Source of the DNA: Thermoplasmata archaeon
Lineage (GTDB): Archaea; Thermoplasmatota; Thermoplasmata; Lutacidiplasmatales; UBA184
Direction of reading: 5' to 3'
Assembly: GCA_035656275.1 (NCBI GenBank)
Contig: DASRSW010000070.1
Span: forward strand, 3,026 to 67,025
DNA: 64,000 nucleotides
Shown here piece by piece: positions 9,511-54,592 of this stretch. Position 1 is the stretch's first letter, and every line of letters begins with the position of its first letter. A program made the position numbers and the translations under genes. Below the pieces are notes generated by a model. That model saw nothing but the letters and a program-made list of their open reading frames with translations. It had not been told where the DNA came from and did not search any database.

Positions 9511-9532
9511 GGTGTTGACTGAACCCGCCGGT

Positions 9533-10021: not shown

Positions 10022-10386
10022 GGGGTTACCTCACTCGCCGCCCGGCCCGACCTCGGGCCGGATGCGTCGCGCCGCGGTGCGCCGGTTCCCCTGGACTCGC
10101 GGACCGGGGTTCCCGGCGCACCCGCGCGACGGGGTCAGGGATCCTGGTCCCTCTCCCGCGCCCAATGCAGCGTGGGACCGCCGACCTCGGCATGCCGCGC
10201 CTAGACCCCCCAGGGGGAATCGGGCCGAGGATAAAGGCGCCCCGCCGACGGACCTTCGAAGGTGCTACCGGTGGCACGTCCTCAACAAAGGTTGGTGCGG
10301 GAGGCCGTCCGATTCCCTTTCGGGCCCAAAGGTTGCGGGTGGTCATCAGCGAGGGAAGGAAATACTGCGAGGGGTTCCCGTCTCGA

Positions 10387-28309: not shown

Positions 28310-28807
28310 CTAGGTGACGGCGATCCGGTGCTCCGCGGCCTGCCGGGTCTTGGGGATGGTCAAGGTCAACACCCCGGCCTCGAACTTCGCCGCGACCTCC
28401 GTGGCGATCACCGGCTGGGGGAGCTCCAGCGTCCGCTCGAAGCCGCGGTGCGCGCGTTCGCGCAGCACGAACGCGCGCGGGGACGCCGCCTTCTCATCCG
28501 GCACCTCTCCGCGCACTTCCACCCGCTGCCCGACCACTTTGACCGAGACTCGGTCTTTGGAGATGCCTGGAAGGTCGAACCGGGCCTCGTAGGCCGTGCC
28601 GAGGTCCGCCAGGTCGACGGGGGCGAGGGCGAGATCCCGGGAGCGCGCGGAGGGACCGTGGCTTTCCGCCCAAGGGTCGAACATCGACCGGAGGCGGCTG
28701 CGCACGAACCCCAGGTCTTCCTCCATGGCCCGCATCTCAAGTCGGATGTCGTGGAGGAGGTCGGACTCATCGGAGACGGGACGGAGACGCTTCGCTTCGG
28801 TCGCCAT
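28310..28807 (-). CDS. hsp20: Small heat-shock protein (Hsp20/alpha-crystallin)
   Basis: Alpha-crystallin domain: PVDLADLGTAYEARFDLPGISKDRVSVKVV...GFERTLELP...AKFEAGVLTLTIPK. Confidence 0.9.
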   Translation of the reverse strand: MATEAKRLRPVSDESDLLHDIRLEMRAMEEDLGFVRSRLRSMFDPWAESHGPSARSRDLALAPVDLADLGTAYEARFDLPGISKDRVSVKVVGQRVEVRGEVPDEKAASPRAFVLRERAHRGFERTLELPQPVIATEVAAKFEAGVLTLTIPKTRQAAEHRIAVT

Positions 28808-28856
28808 GGCTGCCCCTCAGGCAGGGGAGCATGCGGCGGGAATGCGATAACCCCCC

Positions 28857-28874
28857 GGTCAATCGCGGTTGACC
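28857..28874. promoter_or_regulatory. Dyad GGTCAA-N6-TTGACC in the divergent hsp20 / osmC spacer
   Basis: Perfect inverted repeat. On the hsp20 (minus) side it is followed after 7 nt by TTATCGC (28844-28850), 43 nt upstream of the hsp20 ATG. It ends 35 nt upstream of the osmC ATG. Confidence 0.6.
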
Positions 28875-28908
28875 CAAGGCTCAAGAGCACTGCGCCCGAG
28901 GCCGGGGC

Positions 28909-29331
28909 ATGGAGGCGCACGCCCTCTGGCAAGGGAAGAGCCGCATCGAGCTGAACGACGGACGCGGCCACCGGGTGGTGGTCGACCTTCCGGAGAGCGA
29001 AGGCGGCGAGGACGCGGGAACATCGGGTCTCGAGCTCGCGCTGCTGTCGTTCGCGGCCTGCGTGCTCACGATCTTTCCGCTCGTGGCGCGGCGCCGTCGC
29101 ATCCAGATCGAATCGATGGAACTCGATATGGTCGGTCACCGCGGCCCGCGGGCGCCGACCATCGAGCGTGTGGACGGCACCCTTCGCCTGCGGTCTTCCG
29201 CGACTCCCGAGGAGGCCGAGACCGCGCTCCGACTGACGGTCCGGACGTGCCCGGTGGGGGTTCTTTTTGAGCGCGCCGGCGTGCCGGTCCAACTCCGCCT
29301 CGAGCCGATCGGGGCGCTTGTGACGGCATGA
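28909..29331 (+). CDS. OsmC/Ohr family protein
   Basis: 140-aa ORF with SGLELALLSFAACVLTIF and LTVRTCPV (the two conserved Cys). ATGA overlap with fhs. Confidence 0.75.
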   Translation: MEAHALWQGKSRIELNDGRGHRVVVDLPESEGGEDAGTSGLELALLSFAACVLTIFPLVARRRRIQIESMELDMVGHRGPRAPTIERVDGTLRLRSSATPEEAETALRLTVRTCPVGVLFERAGVPVQLRLEPIGALVTA

Positions 29332-31210: not shown

Positions 31211-31612
31211 CTACGCCGCATTCGGCGACGCAGGTCTACTCTGGACCTCGATCCAGTTCCCGTCCGGGTCCTGGACGAAGCCGATACGGTACCGCGTACC
31301 CTCCGACCATGCGGGGATCGCCGGAGTCGCCCCCAAGGTGAGCAACCGGGCCACCGTCTCGTCCGCATCGGCGACTTCGAGGCCGAGGTGGTCGAGGCCC
31401 TCCCCCGGGGTGTACGGCGTCGCGTAGGGGGATTCCGGTGGGTACCAGTTCAGTTCCAGCTGCTGGTGCGAGACCGGGTCCTCGAGCCCCACGAAGAGGC
31501 CGCCGTGACTCATCTGCCCTCGACCGCGCTCCACGAGGCCCAGTCCCTCGAGATAGAAGCGGAGCGAACGGTCGAGGTCGCGGACACGGATTCCCACGTA
31601 GGCGAGCGTCAT
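31211..31612 (-). CDS. VOC family protein (glyoxalase I-like)
   Basis: 133-aa ORF: AYVGIRVRDLDRSLRFYLEGLGL...HLGLEV...GFVQDPDGNWIEV. Confidence 0.8.
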   Translation of the reverse strand: MTLAYVGIRVRDLDRSLRFYLEGLGLVERGRGQMSHGGLFVGLEDPVSHQQLELNWYPPESPYATPYTPGEGLDHLGLEVADADETVARLLTLGATPAIPAWSEGTRYRIGFVQDPDGNWIEVQSRPASPNAA

Positions 31613-36069: not shown

Positions 36070-36633
36070 ATGCCGGCGGAATCCCCTCCGCGCTTCTGCC
36101 GTTTCCGCTCCGATGCCCCGGCCGGCTCCCGCGCTTACTCGCAGCTCCCGGACGACGGTTTCTGCATCTCCGTGTTCCTGCTGCTGCGATCCTCGACCGA
36201 CGCCGTGGACGTCCTGGCGGGGCGGATCGACCCGGCGCGGGACTGGGAGCGAATCGGCGGCCTTCCTGCGGAGCGCGCGAAGAGCGCGGCCGCCGGGTGG
36301 ATGCTCCCCTCCCGGCATCTCCAGCTGTTCGAGGGTCCGGAGGAAGCCGCGAGGACGATCTTGCGGGAGCAGCTGGAGCTGGACCCTCTCGCGCTCCGGG
36401 GGCCCCGGGTCATCTCCGAAACGTATGACCGGGAAGCCTCGAGTCACGACCCCCACTGGGACCTCCACCTGTTGTTCGAGGGGACGTGGCCGTCGGGTCG
36501 GCCGCTGCGGGCATCTCCGTGGGACCACCTCGAGTTCGTGGACCTCCGGCGGACGCCGCCCACCGCCTTCGTGCGCGGACACGGGGACATTCTCGCCTTC
36601 GCCGGCACCCCGTCCCAGGGCAGGCCGTCGTAG
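36070..36633 (+). CDS. NUDIX-like hydrolase fold protein (degenerate Nudix box)
   Basis: Start placed at ATG 36070 inside the composite 616-aa ORF. GPEEAARTILREQLEL resembles Gx5Ex7REUxEE only partly. Confidence 0.4.
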   Translation: MPAESPPRFCRFRSDAPAGSRAYSQLPDDGFCISVFLLLRSSTDAVDVLAGRIDPARDWERIGGLPAERAKSAAAGWMLPSRHLQLFEGPEEAARTILREQLELDPLALRGPRVISETYDREASSHDPHWDLHLLFEGTWPSGRPLRASPWDHLEFVDLRRTPPTAFVRGHGDILAFAGTPSQGRPS

Positions 36634-36695: not shown

Positions 36696-36935
36696 ATGGC
36701 GCCCACTACTCCTCAGGAGACCGAGGCGTTCGTCTCGGGCCTCCTCGGCGCGCTCGCCAACAAACACGGGCAGATGGACATCCGGCTCGACCGGGTCTCG
36801 CTCGGGATCCCGGGAAGCCCCCTCGGCGTGGAACTGAACGGCACGGTCAGCGTCGTCGTGCACATGCGAGACCTCACCGAAGAGGAACGCAAGGCCCACG
36901 TGACGCGGAACATGGCCGCCATCCGTGGGAAGTAG
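36696..36935 (+). CDS. Small hypothetical protein
   Basis: 79-aa ORF with coding-like composition. TATA-like tgtataac about 35 nt upstream. Confidence 0.45.
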   Translation: MAPTTPQETEAFVSGLLGALANKHGQMDIRLDRVSLGIPGSPLGVELNGTVSVVVHMRDLTEEERKAHVTRNMAAIRGK

Positions 36936-36983: not shown

Positions 36984-37610
36984 GTGGGTCTCGACCTCGC
37001 GGGAAGTCCCCGGAGGGCGACGGGCTTCTGTCTGTTGACCCGCGGCAAGTTCGTGCGCACGACGGTCCTCGGGCCGGACGAAGAGATCCTCGAAAAGGTC
37101 CGCGCCGCCCGGCCCGACGTGCTCGTCATTGACGCGCCGCTCTCCCTCCCCCGGGGTCGAGAGAGCCTCGAACGACCGGGCCCTCCCCACCTGCGAGCGT
37201 GCGACCGCGAGCTCCTTCGACTGGGCATCCGCTTCTTTCCCCTCACCCTCGGCCCGATGCGGCTCCTGACGGCGCGCGGTCTTCGGCTCAAGGCGGCGTT
37301 CGCTTCCGAGAAGTTCCCGGTGTTCGAGGGCTACCCCGGGGGGACCCAGGACCTGCTCGGCTGGCCCCGGAAGTCCGAGGGAGTCCCGCGGCTCCAGCGG
37401 GCCCTGCGTCGATTCGGATTCCGCGGGGATGTGGCGGAGCGCCGGCTCACCCACGACGAGCTGGATGCCGTCGCGATCGCCTGGACCGGTGGGCTCTTCC
37501 TTCGGGGAAAAGCGACGGAGATCGGCGACCCGACCGAGGGGACGATGCTCTTCCCCGCCCCCGAGGGGCACGCGCCGAGTCGACTTTCCGAACGGAAAGT
37601 TCCCCTCTGA
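36984..37610 (+). CDS. DUF429 domain protein (RNase H-like fold)
   Basis: MGLDLAGSPRRATGFCLL...VLVIDAPLSLP...HDELDAVAIAW, the typical DUF429 layout. Confidence 0.6.
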   Translation: MGLDLAGSPRRATGFCLLTRGKFVRTTVLGPDEEILEKVRAARPDVLVIDAPLSLPRGRESLERPGPPHLRACDRELLRLGIRFFPLTLGPMRLLTARGLRLKAAFASEKFPVFEGYPGGTQDLLGWPRKSEGVPRLQRALRRFGFRGDVAERRLTHDELDAVAIAWTGGLFLRGKATEIGDPTEGTMLFPAPEGHAPSRLSERKVPL

Positions 37611-37666
37611 CCGTCCACTTCCGCCCTTAAACCCCGCGAGCCCCTCCGGACCCTCGGCTGGAAATC

Positions 37667-37798
37667 ATGAGCGGGCCCAACCTTCCCCTTGCATGTGCCT
37701 GCTGTGACTGCGCGTCGTGCTGCCGCTGTTGCGCCTGCTGCCAGCCCTCCCCGGCTTCCTGTTGTCCCCGGTGCCCCCCGGCAACAGGCCTGGAATAG
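37667..37798 (+). CDS. Cys-rich 43-aa peptide, metallothionein-like (unannotated small ORF)
   Basis: ATG-initiated ORF translated by hand: MSGPNLPLACACCDCASCCRCCACCQPSPASCCPRCPPATGLE. It has 13 Cys of 43 residues, using mixed TGT and TGC codons. It lies in an otherwise empty 240-bp spacer. TATA-like cttaaa at 37626-37631. Confidence 0.45.
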   Translation: MSGPNLPLACACCDCASCCRCCACCQPSPASCCPRCPPATGLE

Positions 37799-37850: not shown

Positions 37851-39197
37851 CTACTCCGGCGATCGGGGCACGCGGGGGTGTCTCAACTCTCGCGCGAGAG
37901 CCTCACCCCGTGGCGTCAACTGGTAGACCTTGAGCCGCCGGGGCTGGCCCTGCACGTGGCGCACGTCCTCGACGATGACGCCGGCGGCGACCAGTCGCCG
38001 AAGGACGTTCGTCAGGGCGTTCTGTCGGATGCCGAGCGCCTTGGAGATCCCGGGCTGGGTAAAGCCGAGGGAGGCGACGTCGTGGGGCCCGAGGACCCCC
38101 TGGACGCCCAGGTGGAGTACCACGCGCTGGGAGATCCGTAGCGCCTCCGTCGTCGGTGGCTTAGACGCCGGCGCCCCCGCCGCTGCGGCCGGCGCAGCGG
38201 CGACCGGCGAGGGCTCCTCGGTCACGCGGGCTTTCGGCGCTCCGATGTCCGCCCGCGCCGGTAGCTCGAGCGGCGGCGTTGCGACTCCGTTCCCCAGGGC
38301 TCCAGCCCGTCGGAAGACGCGTCGGTGCCAGAGGAACATCGCCGATGCTCCGCCGCCCGCCCCGAGGGCCGCCCCGATCCCGACCATGAGACCATCGGTC
38401 GCGCCGAACGAGAGGGGCGGGCTCGGCGACGACCCGCTGACGTTCACGTAGACGCGCCCGAGGACAGACGTCCCCGAGCTATCCGTGGCGTTGACGACCA
38501 CCACGTAGTGCCCAGGCGCCACGAAGGTGTACGGCACGGCGAGCCCACTGCCCTGGTCGCCGTTGCCGAAGCTCCAGACGAGCGAGCGATACGTCCCCGT
38601 GCCGCCGGCCACGTTCGCTTCGAACGTCACCGTGAGAGGGGCGGCGCCGGAGGCAGGCAACGCCATCGGGGCGACCGTCAGCGTCGCGGGGGTGAGCGTG
38701 ATCGAAAGGGAGGTCCCGTTCACGGACGTCCCTTCGTGGACCGTCACCGTCACGAGGAACGAGCCGCCGGCGGCGGGGTAATGGTGGACGGGGGTGAAGT
38801 AGCCGGGACCGGAGCCATTGAAGTACTGGCCATCTCCGAAGCTCCAATTGAAGAGCGTCGGAGTCCCCGGCACGACCGTCGCAAAGAAGGTGACCAGCAG
38901 CGGGTCGGAGGTCGAAGGAGAGTACCCCACGTTGACGCGGAACGGGGCCGAACCAGGGAGCGGGGCTCCTCCCACCGGCACGGCCAGGGCGAGGGCGGCC
39001 AAGAGAGCGCCGAGGGGTCCGCCCCACCCCCTCCAGAGCCCTCCCTGGCGCAGACCAGAGAAGGGTCTGGTGCGCCTACCTCTCCTGCTCCATTTCGCGA
39101 ACGAGCTGTTCCCCTTCCTGTCGGAGCTCCGTTTGGCGACGGCGTCGGGAGAAACGCCCGACCAGGATTCCGCCGATCGCCGTGCCTCCGAGGGCAA
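37851..39197 (-). CDS. Membrane-anchored protein: extracellular PKD domains, TM helix, cytoplasmic winged-helix DNA-binding domain
   Basis: Signal-like N-terminus. PKD motifs (FNWSFGDGQYF...VTVTVHEG; LVWSFGNGDQGSGLAVPYTFVAPGHYVVVVNATDSSG). TM helix (LMVGIGAALGAGGGASAMFLW). C-terminal wHTH (GFTQPGISKALGIRQNALTNVLRRLVAAGVIVED...RRLKVYQLTPRGEALA). Start uncertain, because the ORF overlaps the upstream gene by 122 nt. Confidence 0.7.
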   Translation of the reverse strand: MPSEARRSAESWSGVSPDAVAKRSSDRKGNSSFAKWSRRGRRTRPFSGLRQGGLWRGWGGPLGALLAALALAVPVGGAPLPGSAPFRVNVGYSPSTSDPLLVTFFATVVPGTPTLFNWSFGDGQYFNGSGPGYFTPVHHYPAAGGSFLVTVTVHEGTSVNGTSLSITLTPATLTVAPMALPASGAAPLTVTFEANVAGGTGTYRSLVWSFGNGDQGSGLAVPYTFVAPGHYVVVVNATDSSGTSVLGRVYVNVSGSSPSPPLSFGATDGLMVGIGAALGAGGGASAMFLWHRRVFRRAGALGNGVATPPLELPARADIGAPKARVTEEPSPVAAAPAAAAGAPASKPPTTEALRISQRVVLHLGVQGVLGPHDVASLGFTQPGISKALGIRQNALTNVLRRLVAAGVIVEDVRHVQGQPRRLKVYQLTPRGEALARELRHPRVPRSPE

Positions 39198-40662
39198 GCC
39201 CGACGAGGATCCCGGTGGGAATGCCGAAGTAACTAGCGGGAAGGCCGGCGAAGTTCGTGCCGGTGGCGACCGTCACCGGCCCCAGCGTCTGGTTCGCCGC
39301 ATGACCGGCGCTGTCCGTCACGAGCACGCTCGGGAAGAACGTGCCCGGGCGAGTGTAGGTGTGGGCCACCGGGGTGCCGGGGATCGAGGAGCCGACTGCC
39401 CCGTCCCCAAACGACCACTCGACGGTGTAGGGAGCGCTGCCGCCGCTGATGGAGGCCACAAAGCTCACCGTGAGCGGCGAGGTACCCGAGGCGGGAAGCA
39501 GCGTGCCGTCGACGACCACGGCGGACCCGGTCGTCACGCTGACCGCGACGGTCGCGCCGACGACGACAGCCCCGGTCGTGTTCTGGAGGGTCCCGGTCAC
39601 CGTGAAGTTGCCGGCGGTCGTGTAGGTGTGCTGGAACGCGAACGGGACGCTGCCGCTCCATCCCACGGGGCCGGTCGCGCAGACGGAGCTATCGCCGAAG
39701 CAGACCGTGAGCGCGTCGGGGGCCGCCAGCCCGTTCGAGGCGGCGAGGATCGTCACAGCGAGCGGGGCTCCCCCAGCCTCCGGTGACGCGTCGAGCGAGA
39801 GATTCGGACCCGGCGGCGTGCCGCCGGGACTGACGAGGATCGAGAGGTTGCCGGTGCCCGAATTGCCGGAGCTATCCCGCACGAGGGCGCTCGCGGTGAA
39901 GGTCCCCGGATAGAGGTAGGTGTGGGACACCGGCGAACCCGACCCCGTCCCCCCGTCCCCGAATCGCCAAGAGGTGGTGAACGAGCTCGAGAGATTCCCG
40001 CCGGTGACGTTGGCCCAAAGCGTCGTGGAGAACGGCGCGGTACCACTGGGCGGCGCCGCCTGGTCCGCCACGGTCAGTTGACCGCTCCCGCCCTGGACCA
40101 CGACCGTGAGGAAGGCCTCGGCGCCGCTCCCGTTGACGCCGATGGCCTGCGCCTGGACCGGGAACGACCCTGCGCTTCGGAAGACGTGGGTCACGGTGGC
40201 GCCGGAGAGCTCGGCCCCGTCGCCGAACTCCCACTCGATGTCGAAGGGGGGGCATCCGCCGCTGAGAGTGCTCGTGAAGGTGACGCTGAGGGGAGCGACT
40301 CCGGTCGAGGGCGACGCCTGGATCGAGAACGTGGGGTCGCCGGAGCAGAGCAGCGCCGTGGCGAGCGGCGCCGGGGTCGCCCCCGAGGGGGTCCCGGCGC
40401 CCACGACGGACGAGGGGGCCGCGAAGCCAGCGAGGGCGGCCAGCACGAGCACGGCCGCGACCCCCCGGACCGCCTCGGCCCCCGAGCGGGCCGGATCGTG
40501 CCGGCGATTCACCGGTGGTTGTGAACGCACGGGTAGGTCGAGACTCGGGGACTTGATAACCGTCCCCACCCCGAAGGGGAAAGGGTTGCCGGGGGGCCAG
40601 GTCCCAGCTCCTGGGGCGGGTGGAGGGACCGGCCCCCCGGCGTAGGTCAGTGTGTCGTCCAT
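39076..40662 (-). CDS. Multi-PKD-domain surface protein with C-terminal TM anchor
   Basis: At least four PKD repeats (IEWEFGDGAELSGATVTHVF, TSWRFGDGGTGSGSPVSHTYLYPGTF, FQHTYTTAGNFTVTG, VEWSFGDGAVGSSIPGTPVAHTYTRPGTF). C-terminal TM plus RFSRRRR. Confidence 0.8.
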   Translation of the reverse strand: MDDTLTYAGGPVPPPAPGAGTWPPGNPFPFGVGTVIKSPSLDLPVRSQPPVNRRHDPARSGAEAVRGVAAVLVLAALAGFAAPSSVVGAGTPSGATPAPLATALLCSGDPTFSIQASPSTGVAPLSVTFTSTLSGGCPPFDIEWEFGDGAELSGATVTHVFRSAGSFPVQAQAIGVNGSGAEAFLTVVVQGGSGQLTVADQAAPPSGTAPFSTTLWANVTGGNLSSSFTTSWRFGDGGTGSGSPVSHTYLYPGTFTASALVRDSSGNSGTGNLSILVSPGGTPPGPNLSLDASPEAGGAPLAVTILAASNGLAAPDALTVCFGDSSVCATGPVGWSGSVPFAFQHTYTTAGNFTVTGTLQNTTGAVVVGATVAVSVTTGSAVVVDGTLLPASGTSPLTVSFVASISGGSAPYTVEWSFGDGAVGSSIPGTPVAHTYTRPGTFFPSVLVTDSAGHAANQTLGPVTVATGTNFAGLPASYFGIPTGILVGLALGGTAIGGILVGRFSRRRRQTELRQEGEQLVREMEQER

Positions 40663-40672
40663 GGTCGGGCTC

Positions 40673-41833
40673 CTAGGGCTCGCTCGGGTCTGTGGCGGAC
40701 GATCGCCCGGTCTTCGCTCCCTCCGCGGTCCGCTTCGCGTGGCGGGCCTGGAAGAGCATCACAGCGATGCCCAGCCCGAACAGCGCGACGACCGCGATGA
40801 GCACACCATCGCCGATCGAGAGGGACGTGACTCCCTTCAGGAGGTTGGTCGGCGACGCGGTGCCGCCCGTCGGAGTCTCGGCCCCTCCCCCGGGTGCCGA
40901 AGGGGAGTCGGAGCCGGCGCTCTGGTTCGAACCGTTCCCACCTTCCGAGCCGTTCGAAGACCCGCCGGTGGAACCCGACCCTCCGGAGTCTTCCCCGGAG
41001 CCGGTGGAGCCGTCGGTCGACCCGGTGCTGCCGTTAGAGCCGGTACCGTTCGAACCCGAGCCGTTCGGGTTCGTCGACCCGGAATCCGAAGAAGAGTTGC
41101 CGCTCGAGTTCCCCGAACTGTTCCCGGAGCCGTTCCCCGAGCCGGTCCCTCCGCCTCCGAAGCCGCCGCCACCATCGTCGCCCGATCCGGTTCCGCCTCC
41201 AGAGTCGTCCGAGCCGGTGCCGTTGCCCGAAGAGTTGCCTCCGGTGCCGTTCCCGCCTTCCGATCCTGTGCCGTTGCCGGACGAGTTACCGCCCGTGCCG
41301 TTGCCACCTTCGGAACCCGTGCCGTTGCCGGAGGAATCCTCGCCGGTGCCGTTTCCGCCCTCGGATCCGGTGCCGTTGCCCGAGCTGTTTCCGCCGGTCC
41401 CGTTACCGCCTTCGGAGCCGGTCCCATTGCCCGAGCTGTTTCCGCCCGTGCCGTTGCCGCCTTCGGAGCCGGTGCCGTTACCTGAGCTGTTCTCGCCGGT
41501 ACCGTTCCCGCCTCCCGAGCCGGTCCCGTTTCCCGTGCCGTTGCCAGAATCCGAGCCGTTCCCCGACCCGTTGGACCCGAGAGGGACCACCGCAACGCCC
41601 GGGCCAAGGGCGTAGGTATGGCCCAACGGGAGGAAGGGATGGCTACCGGAAAGGGCGCTCGCTCCCGAGTAGGTCCCGTATCCCAACGCCAAGCTGAAGG
41701 CCACTACCCCCGCCAGCGCCAGCAGCGCCATCGTGGCCCGCGGACGGGGGCGCAGGGGAACCTTCGGTTGGTCCCAGGGTTCGTTCGGCGTCGGCGCGCT
41801 CTGGCGAGCTCGGGTGGCCCGGACGGCGGACAT
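40673..41833 (-). CDS. Membrane protein with tandem GNGTGSEGGNGTGGNSS repeats (N-glycosylation sequon array)
   Basis: N-terminal TM (ALLALAGVVAFSLALG), a long G/N/S/T region including 6 tandem 17-aa repeats, and a C-terminal TM (VLIAVVALFGLGIAVMLF). TATA-like tatttga about 40 nt upstream. Confidence 0.7.
   Translation of the reverse strand: MSAVRATRARQSAPTPNEPWDQPKVPLRPRPRATMALLALAGVVAFSLALGYGTYSGASALSGSHPFLPLGHTYALGPGVAVVPLGSNGSGNGSDSGNGTGNGTGSGGGNGTGENSSGNGTGSEGGNGTGGNSSGNGTGSEGGNGTGGNSSGNGTGSEGGNGTGEDSSGNGTGSEGGNGTGGNSSGNGTGSEGGNGTGGNSSGNGTGSDDSGGGTGSGDDGGGGFGGGGTGSGNGSGNSSGNSSGNSSSDSGSTNPNGSGSNGTGSNGSTGSTDGSTGSGEDSGGSGSTGGSSNGSEGGNGSNQSAGSDSPSAPGGGAETPTGGTASPTNLLKGVTSLSIGDGVLIAVVALFGLGIAVMLFQARHAKRTAEGAKTGRSSATDPSEP
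41217..41522 (-). repeat. Six in-frame 51-nt tandem repeats (17-aa unit GNGTGSEGGNGTGGNSS), flanked by degenerate copies
   Basis: On the plus strand, units beginning gtgc/gtcc recur at 41217, 41268, 41319, 41370, 41421 and 41472 (next at 41523), an exact 51-nt period. Copies differ mainly at synonymous positions. Confidence 0.9.
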
Positions 41834-41887
41834 ACAGACCCTCCTTGCGGCTTCCGTGATTCAAATACCCCCGGGGGAGATACGCCA

Positions 41888-41936
41888 CAGATACGCTACG
41901 GGAGCCCGATACGCTGACGGTACGCGGGGGATCCCG
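41888..41936. promoter_or_regulatory. Direct repeats of (GA)TACGC in the divergent control region
   Basis: TACGC occurs at 41891, 41902, 41920 and 41931 (spacings 11, 18 and 11 nt). The first two copies are AGATACGC. The repeats lie just upstream of the TATA-like box of the 40673-41833 gene. Confidence 0.4.
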
Positions 41937-42106
41937 ACCCTACCGGAACCACTCGGTTCCACCCGTTTGGAGGGCCCCTGGGACCGATCGCCGGCCTCCT
42001 CGTCCCTGAATCGGGCGGCGTCGTCCCCCCGTGGAGTCTTGGCCTCCTCTTCGTCTCAAATTTGATGGCTACGGCATTCCATCGGTTCGCAGATGGGCCG
42101 CAGGTC

Positions 42107-42112
42107 TATAAT
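42107..42112 (+). promoter_or_regulatory. TATA-like box (tataat) of the thermopsin gene
   Basis: This is the only A/T hexamer nearby and lies 25-30 nt upstream of GTG 42137, consistent with a leaderless archaeal mRNA. Confidence 0.45.
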
Positions 42113-42136
42113 CTCCGGTAAACTCGGCGCCGAGTC

Positions 42137-44311
42137 GTGGGAAGCCTGCTCGGTCGCCCGTGTCTCCACCGTCTTTCGGCCCTCGGGCTTTTGCTCGTGC
42201 TTCTGGCCCCCACCGGGGTAATCACCGCCGTGGTGCCGGGTCCGCTGGATCACGCCCCTGCTCCCCCCTCGGTCGCGGGGTTCGGAGCGATCCCGGCACC
42301 CTCCCGGAGTGCCCCTGTGGCGGCGAGCACCCTCTGGACCCCGGCGACACTCGTCCATCCCCGGGGCACCCTGGCGGGGTCGATTGACCCGTACGCGACC
42401 CGAACGGCCGAGCCCGCTCCGATGGGGATCGCCGACTACGGGGTCTCTCCGTCGGGGGGCGGGTACACGGGCTACACGTACAGCACCCCGGAGTGGTGGG
42501 CGGACGCCAACCTCACCCGCCTTCTCGCCAACGACGGGAGCAACACGGCCGGGCACGGGTCGATCAGCTTCCAGCTCAACGTCGTCGTCAAGTTCCATAG
42601 CCCGGTCTCGGGGGATTTCGCCTACTGGATCCAGGACGTGGCCGAAGTCGACACCATCGGGAAGAGCATTCTCTTCGTCGATAACATCTGGAACATGAGC
42701 GCCGCCCAGCTCAATTCGGCCTCCGTTTCCGGGAACGGCTCCGTCTACACCGCGGGCTCCTTCCAGTTCTACGCCGACCAACCGACCTGTCAGGGCCTCG
42801 CGGGCGGGTATCCCGGGAACTGCGTGGCCCTGCGGACCCCCTCGCACGTCACCATGCGGGTCACGACGGGGAACTTCAACGGAGCCCCCCACGTGACGTT
42901 CCAGTACTTCGACCCCAGCGCCGGTTGGGTCACCTATGACAATGCCTCTTTCGGCTTCGCCCGGGGATTCACGGACGCGGGGTTCGTCGTCGACGGGACC
43001 CAGTACACCCCGATCGGGATCTTCTACAACGCCGAGTTCGACTACACCGGCCCAAGCGGCGTGACCACGATGACCGACCGGAACAGCTCGATGCAGTTCC
43101 AGCTCGAGTACTGGAACGGGCACAACCTCGAGGCGCCTTCCAACGCGTTCAACTTCGGAGGCAACACCGCCGAAGAGATCCAGAACGTGATCGTCCGACC
43201 CCACCTGGGCTCGGGCAATGGAAGCCTCGGGGCTGACGTATCGACGGGGTCGGGGGGGCTGGCCATGCTCTACGACCGGGCCAACGTCTCCCTCCTCAAC
43301 GTCAGCACCCCGTTCACCCCCCAGGGTACCCTTTCCGTCGGAGGGGAGTCGCACCCGTACTTCGGGAGCGACAGCGTCCTCACGCTCGCCCCGGGGTCGT
43401 ACTCCCTCGTCCTCGCGAATGCGACGGGGGTCGTGAACACGGTGCCGGTGACCTTGACGCCGGGAGAGTACCTTCACCTCGTGCTCGGCGTACCGGCGAC
43501 GTTTCCGGTCACCGTCCGCGAGCAGGGACTCCCGACGTCGGTCCCGTGGACGCTCCACCTCGCCGCCCAGACGTTCCACACGACGAACCCGACCGTGAGC
43601 GTCAACCTCTCGAACGGTACCTATGCGTGGTCGGTGGACCCGGTGGCCGGCTACATGACCCACCCCTACTCGTCCTCCCTTCTCCTCCGCGGCACGGCCG
43701 CGACGCTGTGGGTCAACTTCACCCGCGTCGTCTATCAGCTCCTGTTCAGTGCCACGGGGCTTCCGACGGGGGCCCCGTGGAGCGTGACCGTGGGCGGCCA
43801 GGGCTTCCCGGGCACCGCGGCCTCGATCGCCGTGGCGGAACCCAACGGGACCTACACCTTCACCGTGGAGGCGGGCCCCCTCTACGCGGCCGACCCGGGA
43901 AACGGGGTCCTCAACGTGACCGGCTCGGACCAGGGACAGGTCATCGGATTCTCGCTACGGCCGGGGTACCTCACCGGGGGGCTGTCTCCCAGCGCCGCGA
44001 CGCTCGAGGTCGCCGGACTGGCCCAGCCGACGAGCGGGGGCGCGTTCAACCTCTCGCTCCCCCCGGGAATCTACACCGTGAGGGCCTACCTAGCTGGATT
44101 CACCAATTTCACGACCAACGCGACCGTCACCGCGGGGAACCGGACGGTCGTCAGCATCGTCCTGCATCAACTGCCGCCGTCGCCCGGCGGAGGTTCGGGC
44201 GGGTCGAGCGACGGGGGACTCACCGGCTCGACGGAGCTCCTGATCCTCGTGGCCGTGGCCGCCGGCGCCGTGGTCGTGGTGGCGGCCGCGGCCGCCCGCC
44301 GTCGGCGATAG
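42137..44311 (+). CDS. Thermopsin-family acid peptidase (A5) with C-terminal beta-sandwich repeats and TM anchor
   Basis: Signal peptide. Thermopsin core EPAPMGIADYG...YWIQDVAEVDT...FVDNIWNMS. Repeated about 90-aa modules (GLPTSVPWTLHLA...NGTYAWSV; GLPTGAPWSVTVG...NGTYTFTV). G/S linker, TM and RRRR tail. Confidence 0.8.
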   Translation: MGSLLGRPCLHRLSALGLLLVLLAPTGVITAVVPGPLDHAPAPPSVAGFGAIPAPSRSAPVAASTLWTPATLVHPRGTLAGSIDPYATRTAEPAPMGIADYGVSPSGGGYTGYTYSTPEWWADANLTRLLANDGSNTAGHGSISFQLNVVVKFHSPVSGDFAYWIQDVAEVDTIGKSILFVDNIWNMSAAQLNSASVSGNGSVYTAGSFQFYADQPTCQGLAGGYPGNCVALRTPSHVTMRVTTGNFNGAPHVTFQYFDPSAGWVTYDNASFGFARGFTDAGFVVDGTQYTPIGIFYNAEFDYTGPSGVTTMTDRNSSMQFQLEYWNGHNLEAPSNAFNFGGNTAEEIQNVIVRPHLGSGNGSLGADVSTGSGGLAMLYDRANVSLLNVSTPFTPQGTLSVGGESHPYFGSDSVLTLAPGSYSLVLANATGVVNTVPVTLTPGEYLHLVLGVPATFPVTVREQGLPTSVPWTLHLAAQTFHTTNPTVSVNLSNGTYAWSVDPVAGYMTHPYSSSLLLRGTAATLWVNFTRVVYQLLFSATGLPTGAPWSVTVGGQGFPGTAASIAVAEPNGTYTFTVEAGPLYAADPGNGVLNVTGSDQGQVIGFSLRPGYLTGGLSPSAATLEVAGLAQPTSGGAFNLSLPPGIYTVRAYLAGFTNFTTNATVTAGNRTVVSIVLHQLPPSPGGGSGGSSDGGLTGSTELLILVAVAAGAVVVVAAAAARRRR

Positions 44312-44326
44312 CCCTCGCGGCATTCC

Positions 44327-44515
44327 ATGACCGGGAAAGGACCGGGTCTCTGGGAGTGGTGGGCCGGGCCCTGGCGCGCCTGGGGCCAACGACTGATGGC
44401 GTTCCTGGAGGGTCGGCGGCCCGGGACGTGCGCCCAGTGCGGGCATGAATCGCCGGGCGCAAGTTCGGGGCTCGGGCCTCGCTACTGCCCGCGATGCGGG
44501 ACCCCCTTCGAGTAG
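44327..44515 (+). CDS. Small zinc-ribbon protein
   Basis: 62-aa ORF with CAQCG-x18-CPRCG and a Trp-rich N-terminus. Confidence 0.45.
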   Translation: MTGKGPGLWEWWAGPWRAWGQRLMAFLEGRRPGTCAQCGHESPGASSGLGPRYCPRCGTPFE

Positions 44516-44553: not shown

Positions 44554-45546
44554 CTAGGCGACCGTGGGAGGGGCCGATCCCCCTACCGGGGGAGGTCCGG
44601 GAAGTCCGAGGCGGCCCGCGTGGAGCCAGGTCGACCCCTGGGTAGCGGGGAGAGGGGCGAATCCCAGCGACGAGTACAGCCGGTAGGCCCCCTCGTTCGA
44701 CAGCGTTACCACAAGGCGGATATCGTCCCTTCCGAGCCGCACCAGCTCCGCGAGCGAGCGGAGCAGGAGACCCCGGGCGAGGCCGCGTCGTCGATGCCGG
44801 GGGTCGACCATCACTTCGGTGATGAGCGCCCCGCGGTAGTCGTTCACGAGCGTGGCTCCGACCACCTCTCCTCCGACCTCCGCGCCGAAAGAGGCGGAGG
44901 CGATCCAGGGTCCGAGCTGGCCGGCGAGCAGGAGGTGCGCGGCGTCCCGGGCGTCGTCGACGGCGTCCCGCCGCTGCCGAAACAGCGCCCGGTCGATGGG
45001 GTTGTCGGCGTACGCCCGGTCGAGGAGGGCCGCGAGCGTAGCCTCGTCGTCCGGTCGCAGGGCGCGCGCGGTCCCCTCTGGGAGGGGGGAAGGGGCGAGG
45101 AGAGGCCGGCCGACGGGCCAGGCGAGGTCGATCCGGGAAACGGGGACGAATCCGCGGGCGGCCAGGACCGGCGCCCGAACCGAGGGCGGCACGCCGGGGA
45201 TCCGGTCCGCGACCTCGAGGAGCGGCCCGTCGGGGATCGCCTCCACCGCCTCGATGAGGCCGTCCAGCGCCGCCTCCGTCCGGTAGCCCGTCGCCAGGAA
45301 CAGCCCGGCCCGGCGGCCGACCTCGCTCGGAGGCTCCCACCAGGCCATGCCCACGGCCTCGTCCTTCGGCCCGACCCAGAGGGCGCCGGGGAGGTCGCCC
45401 GCCCGCACCGCCTCCTCGAGCCCGGTCACCGTGGCGCGGCTCTCCTCGCCGGCCTCCGCCGCCAGCGCCTCCGACAGCTCCGCGAGGAGACGGAGCGCCT
45501 CCGCCTTGGAGGTCGCGATCGGGACGACGCGGGTGTTACCGCTCAT
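44554..45546 (-). CDS. GNAT acetyltransferase (two-domain, MshD-like layout)
   Basis: The C-terminal GNAT motif is VMVDPRHRRRGLARGLLLRSLAEL...AYRLYSSLGF. The N-terminal half is a degenerate GNAT fold. 4-nt overlap with the upstream gene. Confidence 0.7.
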   Translation of the reverse strand: MSGNTRVVPIATSKAEALRLLAELSEALAAEAGEESRATVTGLEEAVRAGDLPGALWVGPKDEAVGMAWWEPPSEVGRRAGLFLATGYRTEAALDGLIEAVEAIPDGPLLEVADRIPGVPPSVRAPVLAARGFVPVSRIDLAWPVGRPLLAPSPLPEGTARALRPDDEATLAALLDRAYADNPIDRALFRQRRDAVDDARDAAHLLLAGQLGPWIASASFGAEVGGEVVGATLVNDYRGALITEVMVDPRHRRRGLARGLLLRSLAELVRLGRDDIRLVVTLSNEGAYRLYSSLGFAPLPATQGSTWLHAGRLGLPGPPPVGGSAPPTVA

Positions 45547-47844: not shown

Positions 47845-50800
47845 CTAGCGCCGGACCCAGCGACGCGTGCGGTACCAGCGATAGCTCACGAGACCCACCA
47901 GGAGCGCGATCGCCGGCAGGAAGGCCAGGAGCGGGACGAGCCAGTCGGGGTACGGGCTCGGCGCGCCGAGGTTCGGCCCGGTGACCGCAATGCCCGTCGA
48001 GTTCAGGGACACGGTGACCCGCGGCACGCTGAGCGCGAGGTCGACGGTGGAGCTCAGGCTCCCGTTGGTCGCCGTGGCGACGAGGTCGATGGTCGACGGA
48101 TAGATCGCGGGGCCGCTCGCGACCAGCTTGACCCCGAACGTCTGGTTGCTCTCGACGGGGATGCTGAGACTCCCCGAGAGGGGGGTCGCGCCGCGGACGA
48201 GAGTGGTCGTCCAGCCGAGGGCGGCCAGCGCGAGCGCGTTCTGGACCGTCACCGTGACCTGGACGGGGACGTTCCCCAGGTTGACCATCCAGAAGTCGAC
48301 CGTGCCCGAGGTCGGCGCGACGACGCTCCCCGAGGTTGAACCGGCGAGGAACCGCAGGAACGGGTCGACGTTGACCTGGAAGCCGGCGCCCGGACCCGCG
48401 AGCGTGTCGTTCGCGAAGAACGGCTGGATCTGCGCGGTGGGCGGCGTGGCGAGCGTGCCGGCGGGGACGACGACGCTGACCCACCCCGAGACCGTCGAGT
48501 TCTGGGCCAGGACGCCGAGCGTGGCGTTCGCCGGGTGGAACGTGAAGTTCCAGGTCGCCGGGCTTCCGACGAAGTGGACGACCGCGGGAAGGTTCCCCAC
48601 GTTCCGGGCCACGAAGTTGAACACCGCCGTTCCCCCGCCGGGGACGGTCATCGACGTCGGCGCGAGGACGGTGACGTGGACGTTGGCCGCGGGATGGTAG
48701 GCGAGCTGGAGCACCGTCGCCGCATTCCCCGCGACGAGGTACACGCTCGCGCGGGCCGTCGCGTTCGTGGGGACACCGTAGGACGACCCCGGAGCGGAGG
48801 CGGTCAGCGTGTAGAGACCCGTGGGGAGCGCCACCATGGTCGACACGCCGAGCGCGACGCCGGGGAGGGAGAGGGTGACGCCGCCCGGGCCAGTCACGGT
48901 CACCGAGACGGCGCCGACGGGGGCGCCCACGGGCGCCGCGACGGTGAGCGTATCGGTCCAGGTCGCATGCAGCCAGACGGTCACGGGAGCGCCGGACGAG
49001 GGGGAGACGGTGAGCAGCGACAGGTTCGCGAGCGGAGCCCCGGCGCCGCCGGCGGTCGCGTAGAGCTCGTAGACCCCGGGGACGAGCTGGGTGGAGAACG
49101 ATCCATTCGAGAACGGCACAACGGCGGTGCCGGTGCCGGGGAGCGGACCCACGAACGCGATGTTCCCGCTGAGAGCGCCGGGGAAACCGGCGAGCGCGAC
49201 CGACCCCGTCACGGCGGTCTCGAGCACCGTCGCGACGAGAGGGATGTTGCAGGTCCCGCTGGGGTACCCCGTCCGACACACGGCGCCGGGTGCCGTGGTG
49301 AGGACCTCGTAGCGGGTGGAGCTCCCCACGGGCACGAGCTGCGTCGTGTTGACGACGGGAACGAACGAGGTGTTCGCGGGGAGCACCGACCGGAAGAGAC
49401 CGGCGCTCGCGACCGTGGGGACCGAGAGGTTGCCGGCGCTCACGAGGGAGAAGACGACGCTCGCGTTGAGCGTCGCGCCCGAGGGCAGCGTCAGGTTCCC
49501 GGAGAGGACCGCGGCCGGGCCCGTCAGGGAGACCGCCGGGGAAACGTAGCCGGTCGCGTTGATCGCGACGCGGGTCAACGTGGCGTAGGTGACGCGGCCC
49601 GTCTCCGACGGCCCGCCGGACGCATTGTTGGCCGTTCCCGACGCGTAGACGGTGTAGGACCCGGAAGGCGCGAGGAAGCTCCCCTCGAACGCGTCACCGG
49701 TGACGGTGTAGTTCCCCTGGTCCGAGAGGAGGTGGAGGACCACGGAAGTGTTCGCAAGGCCGGTCGGAAGCACCAGTTGCCCGCGGGAGGCGAGCTGGTG
49801 GTAGACCCGGAGCGTCACATCGAAGTTCTGGGCGCCGAGAGGCACCGTGGTGTTGATGGGGGCGGCCGGGCGCCACAGTCCCGGGCTCGTCGGACCCCAG
49901 GCGCTGATGCGGTACACGCCCGGGTTGACGGAGAAGAGGAACGTCGGTCCCCCCGTCGCGTTCACCGTCACCGCGGTCGCGGAGACGGCCGTGAAGTTGG
50001 CCGTGAGCCTGGCGCCCGGCGCCACGCCCAGGATGGTCAGGTTCACCGCGACCGGCGCGAGACGGAGCGAGAGCACGGACTGGACCGACAGCTCCTGGGC
50101 GGTGAAGCCGCACGAGGAGGTCGGAAGGAACCCGACCGACTCCGCCGACAGGCAGTAGGTGGCGCTGGCGGGCAGCACGCTCGGCACCGCGAAGCTCACG
50201 TTCCCGTTCGCGTCCGCGACGGCCGTGGCTTGCCAGCCGGTGGAGAGGCCCACGTGCACCACGGCGCCGCCCGCCGGGAAGAACCCGAGTCCGTTCGTCG
50301 CGGTCGCCGTGCCGACCCTCAGATGGATCGGCGCGCCGCTCGCGAGCGGGAGGTTGACGACCGTCGAGTAGGTGAGGCTCACGTTCGCGAGCGCGCTCAA
50401 CGGGGGGACGGTGGCGCTCCCCGTCGGGACCTGTAGGGCCAGGAGGCTGTAGTTCCCCGCGGGGAGATAGAGGACGTACGCGCCCGAGACGTTCGCCTGC
50501 GTGGAGGCGCTCTCGCCGCGCTCGGTGAAGGCGTAGACCTTCGTGACGGCGTTGTTCGGCCCGGCCACTCCGGCGTTCCCGGAGAGCCGGATCGCGGTGC
50601 TCACCTCGAGCGGGGCGAGCTCGATCAGGGGGTGGCCCGGTGGCAGGTAGGCGGCGGCGAACCCGGTGACGAGCCCGGTCGCGGCGAGCCCGAGTCCGTA
50701 GATGGAGTAGTTGCCGTACGGGAGCGTCGCGTGGATGGCCCCGTTGGCATCCGTCAGAATGACGGTGGAGTTGCTCCCGGCCGAGGAGGCGGTACCGGGC

Positions 50801-54534: not shown

Positions 54535-54581
54535 CGACCTCCGACTCTCCCGAATCGGCGGCGCGCGAGACCTAGGGGGCC

Positions 54582-54589
54582 TATAAATA
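54582..54589 (-). promoter_or_regulatory. TATA box (minus strand TATTTATA) of aglB
   Basis: This is the only A/T octamer in the 58-bp spacer. It lies 48-55 nt upstream of the aglB ATG and 3 nt downstream of the DUF35 stop. Confidence 0.55.
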
Positions 54590-54592
54590 GCC

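Follow-up and report, generated by a model that had tools for sequence, protein, structure and literature searches.

A conserved 13-cysteine micro-gene of uncultured soil Thermoplasmata and its candidate metallothionein-like product

The stretch of archaeal DNA described here (64 kb, referred to below as the window) carries on its forward strand, at positions 37667–37798, an unannotated micro-gene that starts with ATG, comprises 43 codons, and ends with TAG. It is located inside the gap of 240 bp that separates the stop codon of a DUF429 gene (37610) from the end of a convergent PKD-wHTH gene (37851), and the nearest relatives of the flanking genes are found in Thermoplasmata MAGs. The open frame holds one start codon only. 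Its predicted cytosolic product, MSGPNLPLACACCDCASCCRCCACCQPSPASCCPRCPPATGLE, has a mass of 4 kDa and includes 13 Cys among its 43 residues (30%), grouped as CxCC, CxxCC, and CCxCC and encoded by eight TGC and five TGT codons. A count of its composition reveals no Phe, Trp, Tyr, or His, and neither a signal peptide nor a hydrophobic segment can be read from the sequence. All of the corresponding details of a preliminary description of this DNA, namely the coordinates, the length of 43 residues, the number of Cys residues and of their two codons, the 240-bp gap, and the position of a cttaaa box ahead of the start, were reproduced when rechecked. Farther upstream, 5–9 kb from the ORF, the window contains genes of stress type, coding for Hsp20, OsmC, and glyoxalase.

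The ORF has the highest density of Cys across all six frames of the window, with 13 Cys in 27 codons, the background frequency of this residue being ~1.5% per frame. The second-densest segment, found at ~41.2 kb, has 7 Cys in 27 codons (10 in 43). That segment, on the forward strand, is an artefact, as it belongs to a non-coding frame of a minus-strand gene built of GNGTGS repeats. Within the ORF the TGY triplets are fully phased, with 13, 0, and 2 of them in the three frames, and 13 or more in a single frame were obtained in a fraction of only 7.5e-4 of 200,000 simulations that used a Markov model of the ORF’s own dinucleotides. Neither TRF nor a repeat finder detected a tandem repeat or a repeat array in the ORF.

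In addition to the copy in the window, nine others were found on contigs of soil Thermoplasmata (L002, L082, L085, L086, L087, L186, L187, L188, and L118), making ten independent copies. All of them share a core of 27 residues, C-x-CC-x-C-xx-CC-[RP]-CC-A-CC-Q-xx-[PS]-xx-CC-xx-C, which in the window is encoded at 37694–37774 of the forward strand and reads C-A-CC-D-C-AS-CC-R-CC-A-CC-Q-PSPAS-CC-PR-C; this segment is the proposed metal-thiolate cluster module. The 13 Cys residues, with the five CC doublets that they form, as well as Ala14 and Gln17, are invariant in the ten sequences, the spacing of the Cys residues is fixed, and the alignment contains no insertion or deletion within the core. 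The N-terminal tail that precedes it (37667–37693, forward strand) has nine residues here, 9–17 in nine of the copies, and 22 or 32 in L118; it is rich in Pro, Gly, Ser, and Ala and is conserved in neither sequence nor length. The C-terminal tail (37775–37795, forward strand) is also variable, with seven residues here and 3–9 in the relatives, so that the members of the family comprise 43–64 residues. A single His is present within the core in two of the ten copies, and several relatives have one Phe in the N-terminal tail. Both tails, as well as the DNA flanking the ORF, are unconserved among the copies.

The ORF is intact in all eight distinct relative lineages in which DUF429 is at least 73% identical and the contig extends past that gene. 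It is also intact in L188, where DUF429 is 64–68% identical, and in L118, a locus not linked to DUF429. Disruption or loss of the ORF in close relatives with conserved flanks, which the preliminary description had named as refuting its proposal, was looked for, and the opposite was found. Where DUF429 is 69% identical or less, L188 is the only one of the searched loci to carry the ORF, and next to DUF429 it is absent from 79 of the 80 loci in the genome collection (L002 being the exception) and from L089. A scan of metagenome DNA for the pattern CCxCCACCQ returned 96 matches, of which one, in L118, is real and 95 are off-frame, microsatellite, or unrelated; six matches in viral DNA were all noise. 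The distribution of the micro-gene is very narrow, being confined to one small clade of soil Thermoplasmata that have not been cultured.

Three distinct genomic contexts are represented among these loci, with no neighbour common to all of them. The ORF outlasts a rearrangement of 6.5 kb, the boundary of which lies just beyond its stop codon, and in L118 it is found in a third, unrelated setting. The next gene is convergent in at least seven of the ten copies (the window and at least six relatives) and is located 0–80 nt past the stop codon of the ORF or overlaps it. In L188 a co-directional gene for a Zn-ribbon protein of 65 residues follows 77 nt downstream, and neither a Zn-ribbon nor a GNAT gene adjoins DUF429 in the other 80+ loci. 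The convergent neighbour in L118 is truncated and contains a C-terminal C..H..M motif of copper ligands of the cupredoxin type, although the match to Pfam Copper-bind is below the threshold (E = 0.016). No transporter of copper, zinc, or cadmium, no metallochaperone, and no metal-sensing regulator lies within ~15 kb of the ORF in the window. Likewise, no radical-SAM, MNIO/DUF692, or YcaO enzyme, no lanthionine synthetase (LanB/C/M), and no peptidase/transporter pair adjoins it, either in the window or among the called genes of the relatives. Since no maturase or metal transporter is present within ~15 kb and the contexts are three different ones, the micro-gene is autonomous, and because no partner gene is conserved, the peptide would work alone.

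Substitutions among the ten copies follow a 3-nt period, and strong constraint is seen in the sense frame only, where pN/pS equals 0.31; the ratio is 1.4–1.7 for four of the other frames and 0.59 for the antisense frame that mirrors the sense one. Positions 1 and 2 of the Cys codons vary at none of 26 sites and the third position alternates between TGT and TGC at 10 of 13 (Fisher p = 4.5e-7), whereas the non-Cys codons, with pN/pS of ~0.76, are almost free to vary. A start and a stop codon flank the core in every one of the ten copies, again solely in the sense frame. Conserved Cys positions and purely synonymous variation of the Cys codons, two of the signs for which the preliminary description had proposed to test, are present throughout the family. 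Its own alternative of a chance ORF in TGC/GCT-biased DNA has to be rejected, because the relatives keep the ORF intact with only synonymous change at the 13 Cys codons. On this comparative evidence the micro-gene is real, conserved, and phased, and it is under purifying selection almost solely on its Cys residues.

The view that the sense frame contains no gene at all, and that the ORF arose by chance, marks an RNA or DNA element, mirrors an antisense Gln-rich gene, or extends DUF429 by read-through, is largely refuted and retains a nearly negligible probability. DNA of 70% GC often leaves all six frames open, which would favour it, as would the pN/pS of the mirror frame, the antisense ORF of 55 residues that a gene caller annotated in L186 in place of the sense one, and the location of the ORF in the frame of DUF429, right after its stop codon, in four of the nine DUF429-linked loci. 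The 3-nt period, the restriction of strong constraint to the sense frame, and the low frequency of such phasing in the simulations all speak against it. An antisense Gln-rich gene is rejected because in seven of the ten loci there is no ATG, GTG, or TTG ahead of the core in that frame. Read-through of the DUF429 stop codon is rejected as well, since four of nine in frame corresponds to chance (one third), and in the window the ORF is out of frame with DUF429, with two stops intervening. A conserved RNA element is contradicted by the RNAalifold covariation term of +0.17, with a consensus energy of only −11.5 kcal/mol, and by the folding z-score of −0.74 for the gap in the window.

The cTTAAA box at 37626–37631 on the forward strand, 36–41 nt upstream of the ATG, is a candidate archaeal TATA element, as the preliminary description had assumed. 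A run of four or more A/T bases is present between −41 and −27 from the start codon in seven to eight of the ten copies, the background for such runs in the window being 0.0037 per nt, and this trend agrees with the assumption. However, the box of some relatives takes in the TAA stop codon of DUF429, and for this reason it is only suggestive as the micro-gene’s own promoter.

No relative of the peptide was detected outside this family. A word-indexed search of 5.8 billion protein clusters returned no candidate, phmmer found no match at E ≤ 0.001 among 1.84 billion representatives and no PDB chain at E ≤ 10, no Pfam family matched at E ≤ 1 (PF00131 and PF02069, SmtA, included), and phmmer revealed no similarity to MymT. 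Rfam had no match across the whole window. The ORF has no gene call in the protein collections examined: its ten copies are present in public assemblies, and collections of 5.8 and 15 billion sequences include none of them among their predicted proteins. Together with the L186 contig, where the antisense frame was annotated in its place, this defines a blind spot of annotation. A single-sequence AF2 prediction, with a pLDDT of 61, one weak helix, and no confident apo fold, is uninformative.

We consider that the micro-gene may encode a cytosolic metal-thiolate cluster peptide, that is, an analogue of metallothioneins unrelated by sequence homology to their known families, and we assign to this reading a probability of roughly 0.45. 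The ORF would be transcribed independently, from the putative promoter, and translated in vivo as a micro-gene, and its core, with 13 Cys in 27 residues, would fold around several ions of soft metals to form a metal-thiolate cluster. As estimated from the number of Cys residues, the load might be roughly four Zn(II)/Cd(II) or six to eight Cu(I). Given such a cluster, the peptide is proposed to act as a metallothionein-like buffer or detoxifier of metals.

Several properties that characterize metallothioneins are present. Low mass (less than ~10 kDa) applies to the entire family of 43–64 residues, a Cys content within the range of ~15–35%, arranged in CC, CxC, and CxxC motifs, is found in the window peptide (30%), and the aromatic residues and His, few or none in metallothioneins, are absent from it. 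Sequence homology to the known families (Pfam MT, PDB, MymT) was not detected. The metallothionein-like nature postulated in the preliminary description is in keeping with the size, the Cys content and motifs, the lack of aromatics and His, and the selection on Cys only. Against it stand the absence of family homology, the absence of metal-homeostasis genes nearby in the window, and the very narrow distribution; the copper-ligand motif of the neighbour in L118 would favour it, but as a truncated match below the threshold. Almost freely varying non-Cys codons and tails of different length fit the evolutionary pattern expected of metal-thiolate peptides, and the absence of a confident apo fold in the model is weakly compatible with folding around metal. 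Conservation limited to Cys is also compatible with redox, sulfur-carrier, or Cys-codon-sensing roles.

A real peptide might use its thiols in a non-metal role, as a redox buffer or switch based on vicinal Cys-Cys disulfides, a carrier of persulfide or polysulfide, or a small binder of Fe-S or metalloids (As/Sb). Selection on the Cys residues only, the five invariant CC doublets, the autonomy of the gene with no metal genes nearby, and the Hsp20, OsmC, and glyoxalase genes upstream would all agree with such a function, and the host lineage presumably lacks glutathione. We nevertheless regard it as rather unlikely, as the fixed spacing of 13 Cys over 27 residues in ten lineages suggests the geometry of one cluster rather than generic thiols, and the stress genes, the linkage of which is known from the window alone, are not adjacent to the ORF.

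Alternatively, the ORF could encode the precursor of a RiPP, with Cys residues converted to thioethers, thiooxazoles, or similar groups by enzymes whose genes lie at other loci of the host. Cys-rich precursors of this kind exist, including SCIFF/ranthipeptides and substrates of MNIO enzymes, and the ORF, likewise short and rich in Cys, has an N-terminal part that varies and a C-terminal core that is conserved. This explanation is improbable, since no maturase or peptidase/transporter pair is found beside the ORF in the window or among the called genes of its relatives, the three contexts have no neighbour in common, and the N-terminal “leader”, of 9–17 residues in most copies, is short and unconserved, unlike the leaders recognized by maturases.

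The ORF might also be a sensory leader: ribosomes would stall on its 13 Cys codons whenever charged tRNA-Cys runs short, thereby regulating a neighbour. To our knowledge, attenuation of the polycysteine-leader kind has not been described in archaea. There is a mycobacterial precedent in the polycysteine leaderless sORFs, which are similarly unannotated, short, and packed with Cys codons, and which are located upstream of co-directional operons of cysteine metabolism and act via an RNA duplex (bioRxiv 10.1101/834739). The extreme density of Cys codons, the weak constraint on other residues, an A/T box that several copies have at −28 and that may indicate a leaderless mRNA, and the co-directional Zn-ribbon gene 77 nt downstream in L188 are in line with such a leader. 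Unlike in the mycobacterial case, the next gene is convergent in most copies, leaving nothing downstream to attenuate, the neighbours are unrelated to cysteine metabolism, and no conserved RNA structure that would sequester a ribosome-binding site was detected. Moreover, a stalling sensor needs neither exact spacing of the Cys residues nor the invariant Ala and Gln. Such a role is accordingly quite improbable.

Returning to the metallothionein-like reading, metallothioneins are known from eukaryotes and a few bacteria, and the vertebrate α-domain (KSCCSCCP...), yeast Cup1, and Neurospora Cu-MT are likewise very small, with ~30% Cys in CC, CxC, CxxC, and CCxCC motifs and with no aromatics or His; CCxCC is found in the α-domains of the vertebrate proteins. 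In them, too, constraint is essentially placed on the Cys positions, and the peptide is likewise predicted to be unstructured without metal. It differs from them in being archaeal, in placing 13 Cys with five CC doublets in 27 residues and in having no detectable homology. SmtA/BmtA (PF02069) are similarly prokaryotic, cytosolic, Cys-rich metal buffers, as is proposed for the peptide; however, SmtA has a zinc-finger-like fold with His ligands as well, and also contains aromatics, and its Pfam model misses the 13-Cys peptide. The copper storage proteins Csp1 and Csp3 store numerous Cu(I) ions in the cytosol, bound to the thiolates of Cys residues, as the peptide would, but they are pre-folded four-helix bundles (~120 residues per monomer) that form tetramers, whereas the peptide of 43 residues has no predicted stable fold. 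These proteins occur in archaea too (PMC7558416, section 4.4).

Prokaryotic metallothioneins are described in reviews as rare (PMC7558416, PMC8490943). One of them, MymT of Mycobacterium tuberculosis, is a Cu(I) metallothionein encoded by a small non-annotated ORF and offers in this respect a precedent (PMC7558416, section 4.3); it is induced by copper and binds up to six Cu(I) (PMC7558416). Like the peptide, MymT is prokaryotic, Cys-rich, stand-alone, and lineage-restricted, has a mass of 4–5 kDa, and was missed by annotation (PMC7558416), although the two have no sequence similarity. A search of full texts for the term “archaeal metallothionein” found no paper, and in the literature the lack of metallothioneins in archaea was found stated only indirectly and never in so many words.

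At the level of sequence, the peptide is the best candidate to date for a metallothionein-like metal-binding peptide of archaea. Being conserved and selected, it would offer a concrete and directly synthesisable candidate in a gap of archaeal metal biology. We can speculate further that it represents the first metallothionein family of Archaea, a single-cluster peptide with 13 Cys that originated in this clade independently of every bacterial and eukaryotic metallothionein, possibly de novo from intergenic DNA, and that was not seen before because gene callers skip the ORF or, in one case, call the opposite strand; this proposal is plausible, at somewhat short of even odds. If true, it would add one more independent origin of metal-thiolate peptides, in an instance of convergent evolution. 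The 27-residue core is also a candidate for a very compact natural scaffold of metal-binding peptides.

Archaeal zinc-ribbon micro-proteins with C(P)xCG motifs are likewise small and contain Cys, and the C-terminal CC-P-x-C of the peptide resembles a zinc knuckle. In those proteins, however, a single Zn is bound by four Cys arranged as two CxxC knuckles, and no Pfam zinc-ribbon model matches the 13-Cys peptide. Separate genes that do match such models are located at 44327–44515 in the window and, beside the copy of the ORF, at 9449–9577 in L118 (42 residues).

The 43-codon frame at 37667–37798 on the forward strand (13-Cys ORF), which starts with ATG and ends with TAG, is translated as MSGPNLPLACACCDCASCCRCCACCQPSPASCCPRCPPATGLE. 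Its 13 cysteines are encoded by eight TGC and five TGT codons, and phenylalanine, tryptophan, tyrosine, and histidine are absent. The ORF is contained in the 240-bp gap that separates the DUF429 gene (36984–37610, forward strand; Pfam PF04250) from the 3′ end of the convergent PKD-wHTH gene (37851–39197, reverse strand), which encodes PKD domains and, at the C terminus, a winged-helix region. These features, as well as the position of the A/T box cttaaa (37626–37631), were confirmed from the sequence as the preliminary description had given them. The flanking genes have their nearest relatives in Thermoplasmata MAGs, thus the host is an archaeon.

The G+C content of the window is 69%, and in such DNA (70% G+C) long open frames are present in all six frames, so that an open frame of 43 codons alone carries no meaning. 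In each frame of the window ~1.5% of the codons encode cysteine, and the ORF includes 13 such codons within 27, compared to seven in the densest other stretch of that length. The TGY triplets of the ORF are distributed over its frames as 13/0/2; under a Markov model fitted to the dinucleotides of the ORF itself, a deliberately generous null, at least 13 TGY fell in one frame in a fraction of 7.5e-4 of 200,000 simulations. No tandem repeat was found in the ORF. The second most cysteine-dense stretch (~41212–41400, forward strand, 10 Cys in 43 codons) was rejected as a gene, being a non-coding frame of an opposite-strand Gly/Asn/Thr/Ser-repeat gene; the 386-aa protein encoded there (40673–41833, reverse strand) consists mostly of GNGTGS(E/D)GGNGTGxNSS-type repeats and has no Pfam match.

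Searches with the peptide yielded no candidate among 5.8 billion protein clusters, no match among 1.84 billion HMMER-scanned representatives, no Pfam family at E ≤ 1, and no matching chain in the PDB. Since not even a self-match was present in the protein databases, the peptide had never been called by any gene caller. Copies were therefore sought via the neighbor, by collecting DUF429 relatives in genomes and in the protein collection and inspecting the DNA around the closest ones. An intact orthologous ORF is present in every distinct lineage in which DUF429 is at least 73% identical and the contig reaches past it (loci L002, L082 (=L083), L085, L086, L087 (=L088), L186, and L187), with no disruption in these close relatives. 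The more distant L188 (DUF429 64–68% identical, varying by search) also carries it. A scan of the metagenome collection with a degenerate DNA pattern for CCxCCACCQ gave 96 matches with one true member, L118, located in a genomic context unrelated to that of the other copies. Of the 80 DUF429 loci that came from genomes, the other 79 (each with ≤66% identity) lack the ORF, as does locus L089. Judged by this distribution in sequence collections, the family is real, with its range limited to a narrow clade of soil Thermoplasmata.

Listed as N-terminal tail, core, and C-terminal tail, the aligned copies are MSGPNLPLA, CACCDCASCCRCCACCQPSPASCCPRC, PPATGLE (window); VSDPRTSGRFS, CACCDCSSCCRCCACCQTPSVGCCPRC, EDPSRA (L002); METGGPPPAGFA, CACCSCASCCRCCACCQPEPAACCPGC, GPAMPTR (L082); MDAGGSPATSLA, CACCTCDSCCRCCACCQPVPSSCCPGC, GVPTGAGPL (L186); MSVSRTAAGSHRPTVA, CACCDCAACCRCCACCQSEPRGCCPSC, DAPSARPG (L085); MAPRDDPSGPPSAGRFA, CACCHCTACCPCCACCQPDPAACCPGC, VGPAGAARG (L086); MAPREDPVGPPGSARFA, CACCHCTACCPCCACCQPEPAACCPGC, GGPMGVARD (L187); VSPHDPRVDASPRRPA, CACCRCDSCCPCCACCQAAPSACCAGC, SDP (L087); MGHPRGTEEFSPTGFG, CSCCDCARCCRCCACCQSEPTRCCGGC, DLRSA (L188); and ...SLPRFA, CGCCACTACCRCCACCQSPPSACCRGC, DGDGV (L118). 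The 27-residue core (37694–37774 in the window) has no indels, and all 13 cysteines, one alanine, and one glutamine are invariant across the ten copies; the tails vary in both sequence and length. The first and second positions of the cysteine codons are never variable (0 of 26), whereas the third position differs between TGT and TGC at 10 of the 13 codons (Fisher p = 4.5e-7), so that the cysteine positions are conserved with synonymous variation only, as the preliminary description had proposed to check. The pN/pS ratio of the core is 0.31 in the frame of the ORF, versus 1.4–1.7 in four other frames and 0.59 in the antisense frame that shares third positions with it; the non-Cys codons are scarcely constrained (~0.76). 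Ascertainment is not the cause of this pattern, since the DUF429-linked copies were discovered through the neighboring gene and flagged by loose filters (a 27-codon stretch with at least seven Cys, or a short motif like CC-x(0–3)-CC), and the pattern that found L118 fixes only 6 of the 13 cysteines. We estimate at about 0.9 the probability that the ORF is a protein-coding micro-gene with purifying selection on its cysteines. The 13 fixed cysteines, the phased TGY triplets, and the frame-specific pN/pS lead us to reject the chance ORF considered earlier, and it is very improbable that the DNA is not a gene in this frame.

Other readings of the same DNA were also considered. The public gene call in L186 (1158–1325, reverse strand) is an antisense, Gln-rich 55-aa frame (VGTPHPGQQLLGTGWQQAQQRQHESQVQQAQ...), apparently annotated in error because of the mirrored codon pattern; in 7 of the 10 loci, the window included, such a frame has no ATG, GTG, or TTG between the upstream stop and the core. 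The sense frame has in all ten copies a start 9–17 codons ahead of the first cysteine (22 or 32 in L118) and a stop 3–9 codons past the last one. Extension of DUF429 by read-through was rejected as well: the two are in frame in 4 of 9 linked loci, the level expected by chance, and in the window they are out of frame, with two stops intervening. A leader ORF sensing Cys-tRNA, for which mycobacterial polycysteine sORFs are the comparison (bioRxiv 10.1101/834739), is quite improbable: in most copies the following gene is convergent, and the RNA shows no conserved structure. A conserved RNA element was likewise rejected, with no covariation detected by RNAalifold (term +0.17); the 240-nt gap folds no better than shuffled sequences (z = −0.74), and an Rfam search gave no match.

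Runs of at least four A/T bases occur in the window at 0.0037 per nt, and such a run is found 27–41 nt upstream of the start in 7–8 of the 10 copies. In one group (L085, L086, L187, L188, and also L118 if its start is GTG 9718) the box lies near −28, a spacing that suggests leaderless mRNAs; in the other (window, L082, L186) it lies near −40, suggesting a leader of ~10 nt. The proposal of a TATA box is thus upheld in part: the A/T runs recur, and as expression signals they are suggestive only, because the box overlaps the DUF429 stop codon in some relatives and the copies are mutually related.

The earlier proposal of a metallothionein-like peptide is strongly supported as far as a real, conserved Cys-peptide gene is concerned; metallothionein itself is, from composition, a plausible reading and the strongest so far, held tentatively and at somewhat less than even odds. 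It is favored by the size, 30% Cys, CC/CxC/CxxC/CCxCC motifs, and lack of aromatics and histidine, which are the classical compositional criteria, by selection acting on Cys identity and spacing and almost nothing else, with variable tails, and by the absence of a signal peptide, hydrophobic segment, or obligate partner gene. Such a peptide would be cytosolic, disordered when empty, and would fold around a multinuclear metal-thiolate cluster. AF2 gave a pLDDT of 61 with no confident apo fold, weak evidence for metal-dependent folding. By analogy with M4Cys11 α-domains and fungal Cu-thioneins, 13 thiolates might hold approximately four Zn(II)/Cd(II) or six to eight Cu(I). The conserved cysteines are unlikely to belong instead to a peptide of the thiol/redox, persulfide, or metalloid kind. 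It is improbable that the ORF encodes a RiPP precursor whose maturases are unlinked; within ~15 kb of it, the window has no genes for radical-SAM, MNIO, YcaO, or lanthionine enzymes, nor for metal transporters, chaperones, or sensors.

The 13-Cys gene is autonomous, being found in three genomic contexts. In the window clade it is placed between DUF429 and the convergent PKD-wHTH, whose winged-helix part is 89–95% identical among relatives, compared to only 73–79% for their DUF429. PKD-wHTH includes a probable membrane segment and weak PadR/HxlR/MarR matches in its winged helix, and may be a membrane-tethered one-component regulator. In L188, DUF429 and the ORF are followed directly by a 65-aa zinc-ribbon gene (3882–4079) and a convergent GNAT gene (4087–4785). 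Their window homologues, a 62-aa zinc-ribbon micro-protein (CAQCG...CPRCG; 44327–44515, forward strand; 55% identity) and a convergent GNAT (44554–45546, reverse strand; 53%), are found beyond a 6.5-kb block (37851–44311; PKD-wHTH, PKD protein, repeat protein, and thermopsin) with its boundary just past the ORF stop; the block either separates the ORF from these genes in the window or was lost in L188. In L118, DUF429 is missing; a 42-aa zinc-ribbon ORF (9449–9577, reverse strand) lies upstream, and a convergent membrane-anchored fragment (9976–10269, reverse strand) ends in a cupredoxin-type Cys/His/Met copper-ligand motif (YEFVCVVNGHFAGGM). With only 97 residues of the protein inside the locus, the Pfam matches to Copper-bind and SoxE stay below threshold (E ~0.02), and this neighbor is no more than a faint hint of copper.

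We know of no characterized archaeal metallothionein, and the phrase "archaeal metallothionein" is absent from 8.3 million full texts. The peptide resembles metallothioneins on paper, but in the homology searches (Pfam, 1.84 billion representatives, PDB) it falls outside every known metallothionein sequence family, nor is it a member of the zinc-ribbon micro-proteins, Csp-type copper stores, or known RiPP classes. We regard the 13-Cys peptides as a new, unannotated, lineage-restricted family, by analogy comparable to metallothioneins. Reviews count metallothioneins as rare among prokaryotes (PMC7558416, PMC8490943), and C-rich low-complexity domains are likewise reported to be rare in archaea and bacteria (PMC11132505); MymT of M. 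tuberculosis, a prokaryotic metallothionein encoded in a non-annotated small ORF, is a precedent for a hidden gene (PMC7558416, section 4.3). The weight of the finding is limited by the narrow family, uncultured hosts, and a function read from composition alone; the family nevertheless exposes an annotation blind spot and offers a concrete, easily synthesized candidate for an archaeal metallothionein.

Several other genes are of separate interest. A 79-aa (36696–36935) and a 187-aa (36070–36633) conserved gene, both on the forward strand and with no Pfam match, are found alongside DUF429 in the close syntenic relatives that were examined; the former is also kept in L188 (56% identical). Hsp20, OsmC-like peroxiredoxin, and glyoxalase/VOC genes (28310–29331, 31211–31612) are located 5–9 kb upstream of the ORF, and a glyoxalase-family gene lies ~1 kb from the L118 copy; the proximity of such genes to both copies is probably a coincidence. 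The thermopsin-family acid protease (42137–44311, forward strand; Pfam E = 2.7e-65), which carries CarboxypepD_reg/PEGA domains at its C terminus, would fit an acid-adapted host, and we can speculate that acidity would raise metal bioavailability. A full-length 575-aa Peptidase_M2 of the angiotensin-converting-enzyme family (22497–24224, reverse strand) matches the whole Pfam model at E = 2e-214; the family occurs chiefly in animals and in scattered bacteria, so that its archaeal member may have been acquired horizontally. A giant 2312-aa protein (47845–54783, reverse strand) starts with an STT3/AglB oligosaccharyltransferase region, which is followed by several CarboxypepD_reg/prealbumin-like β-sandwich repeats.
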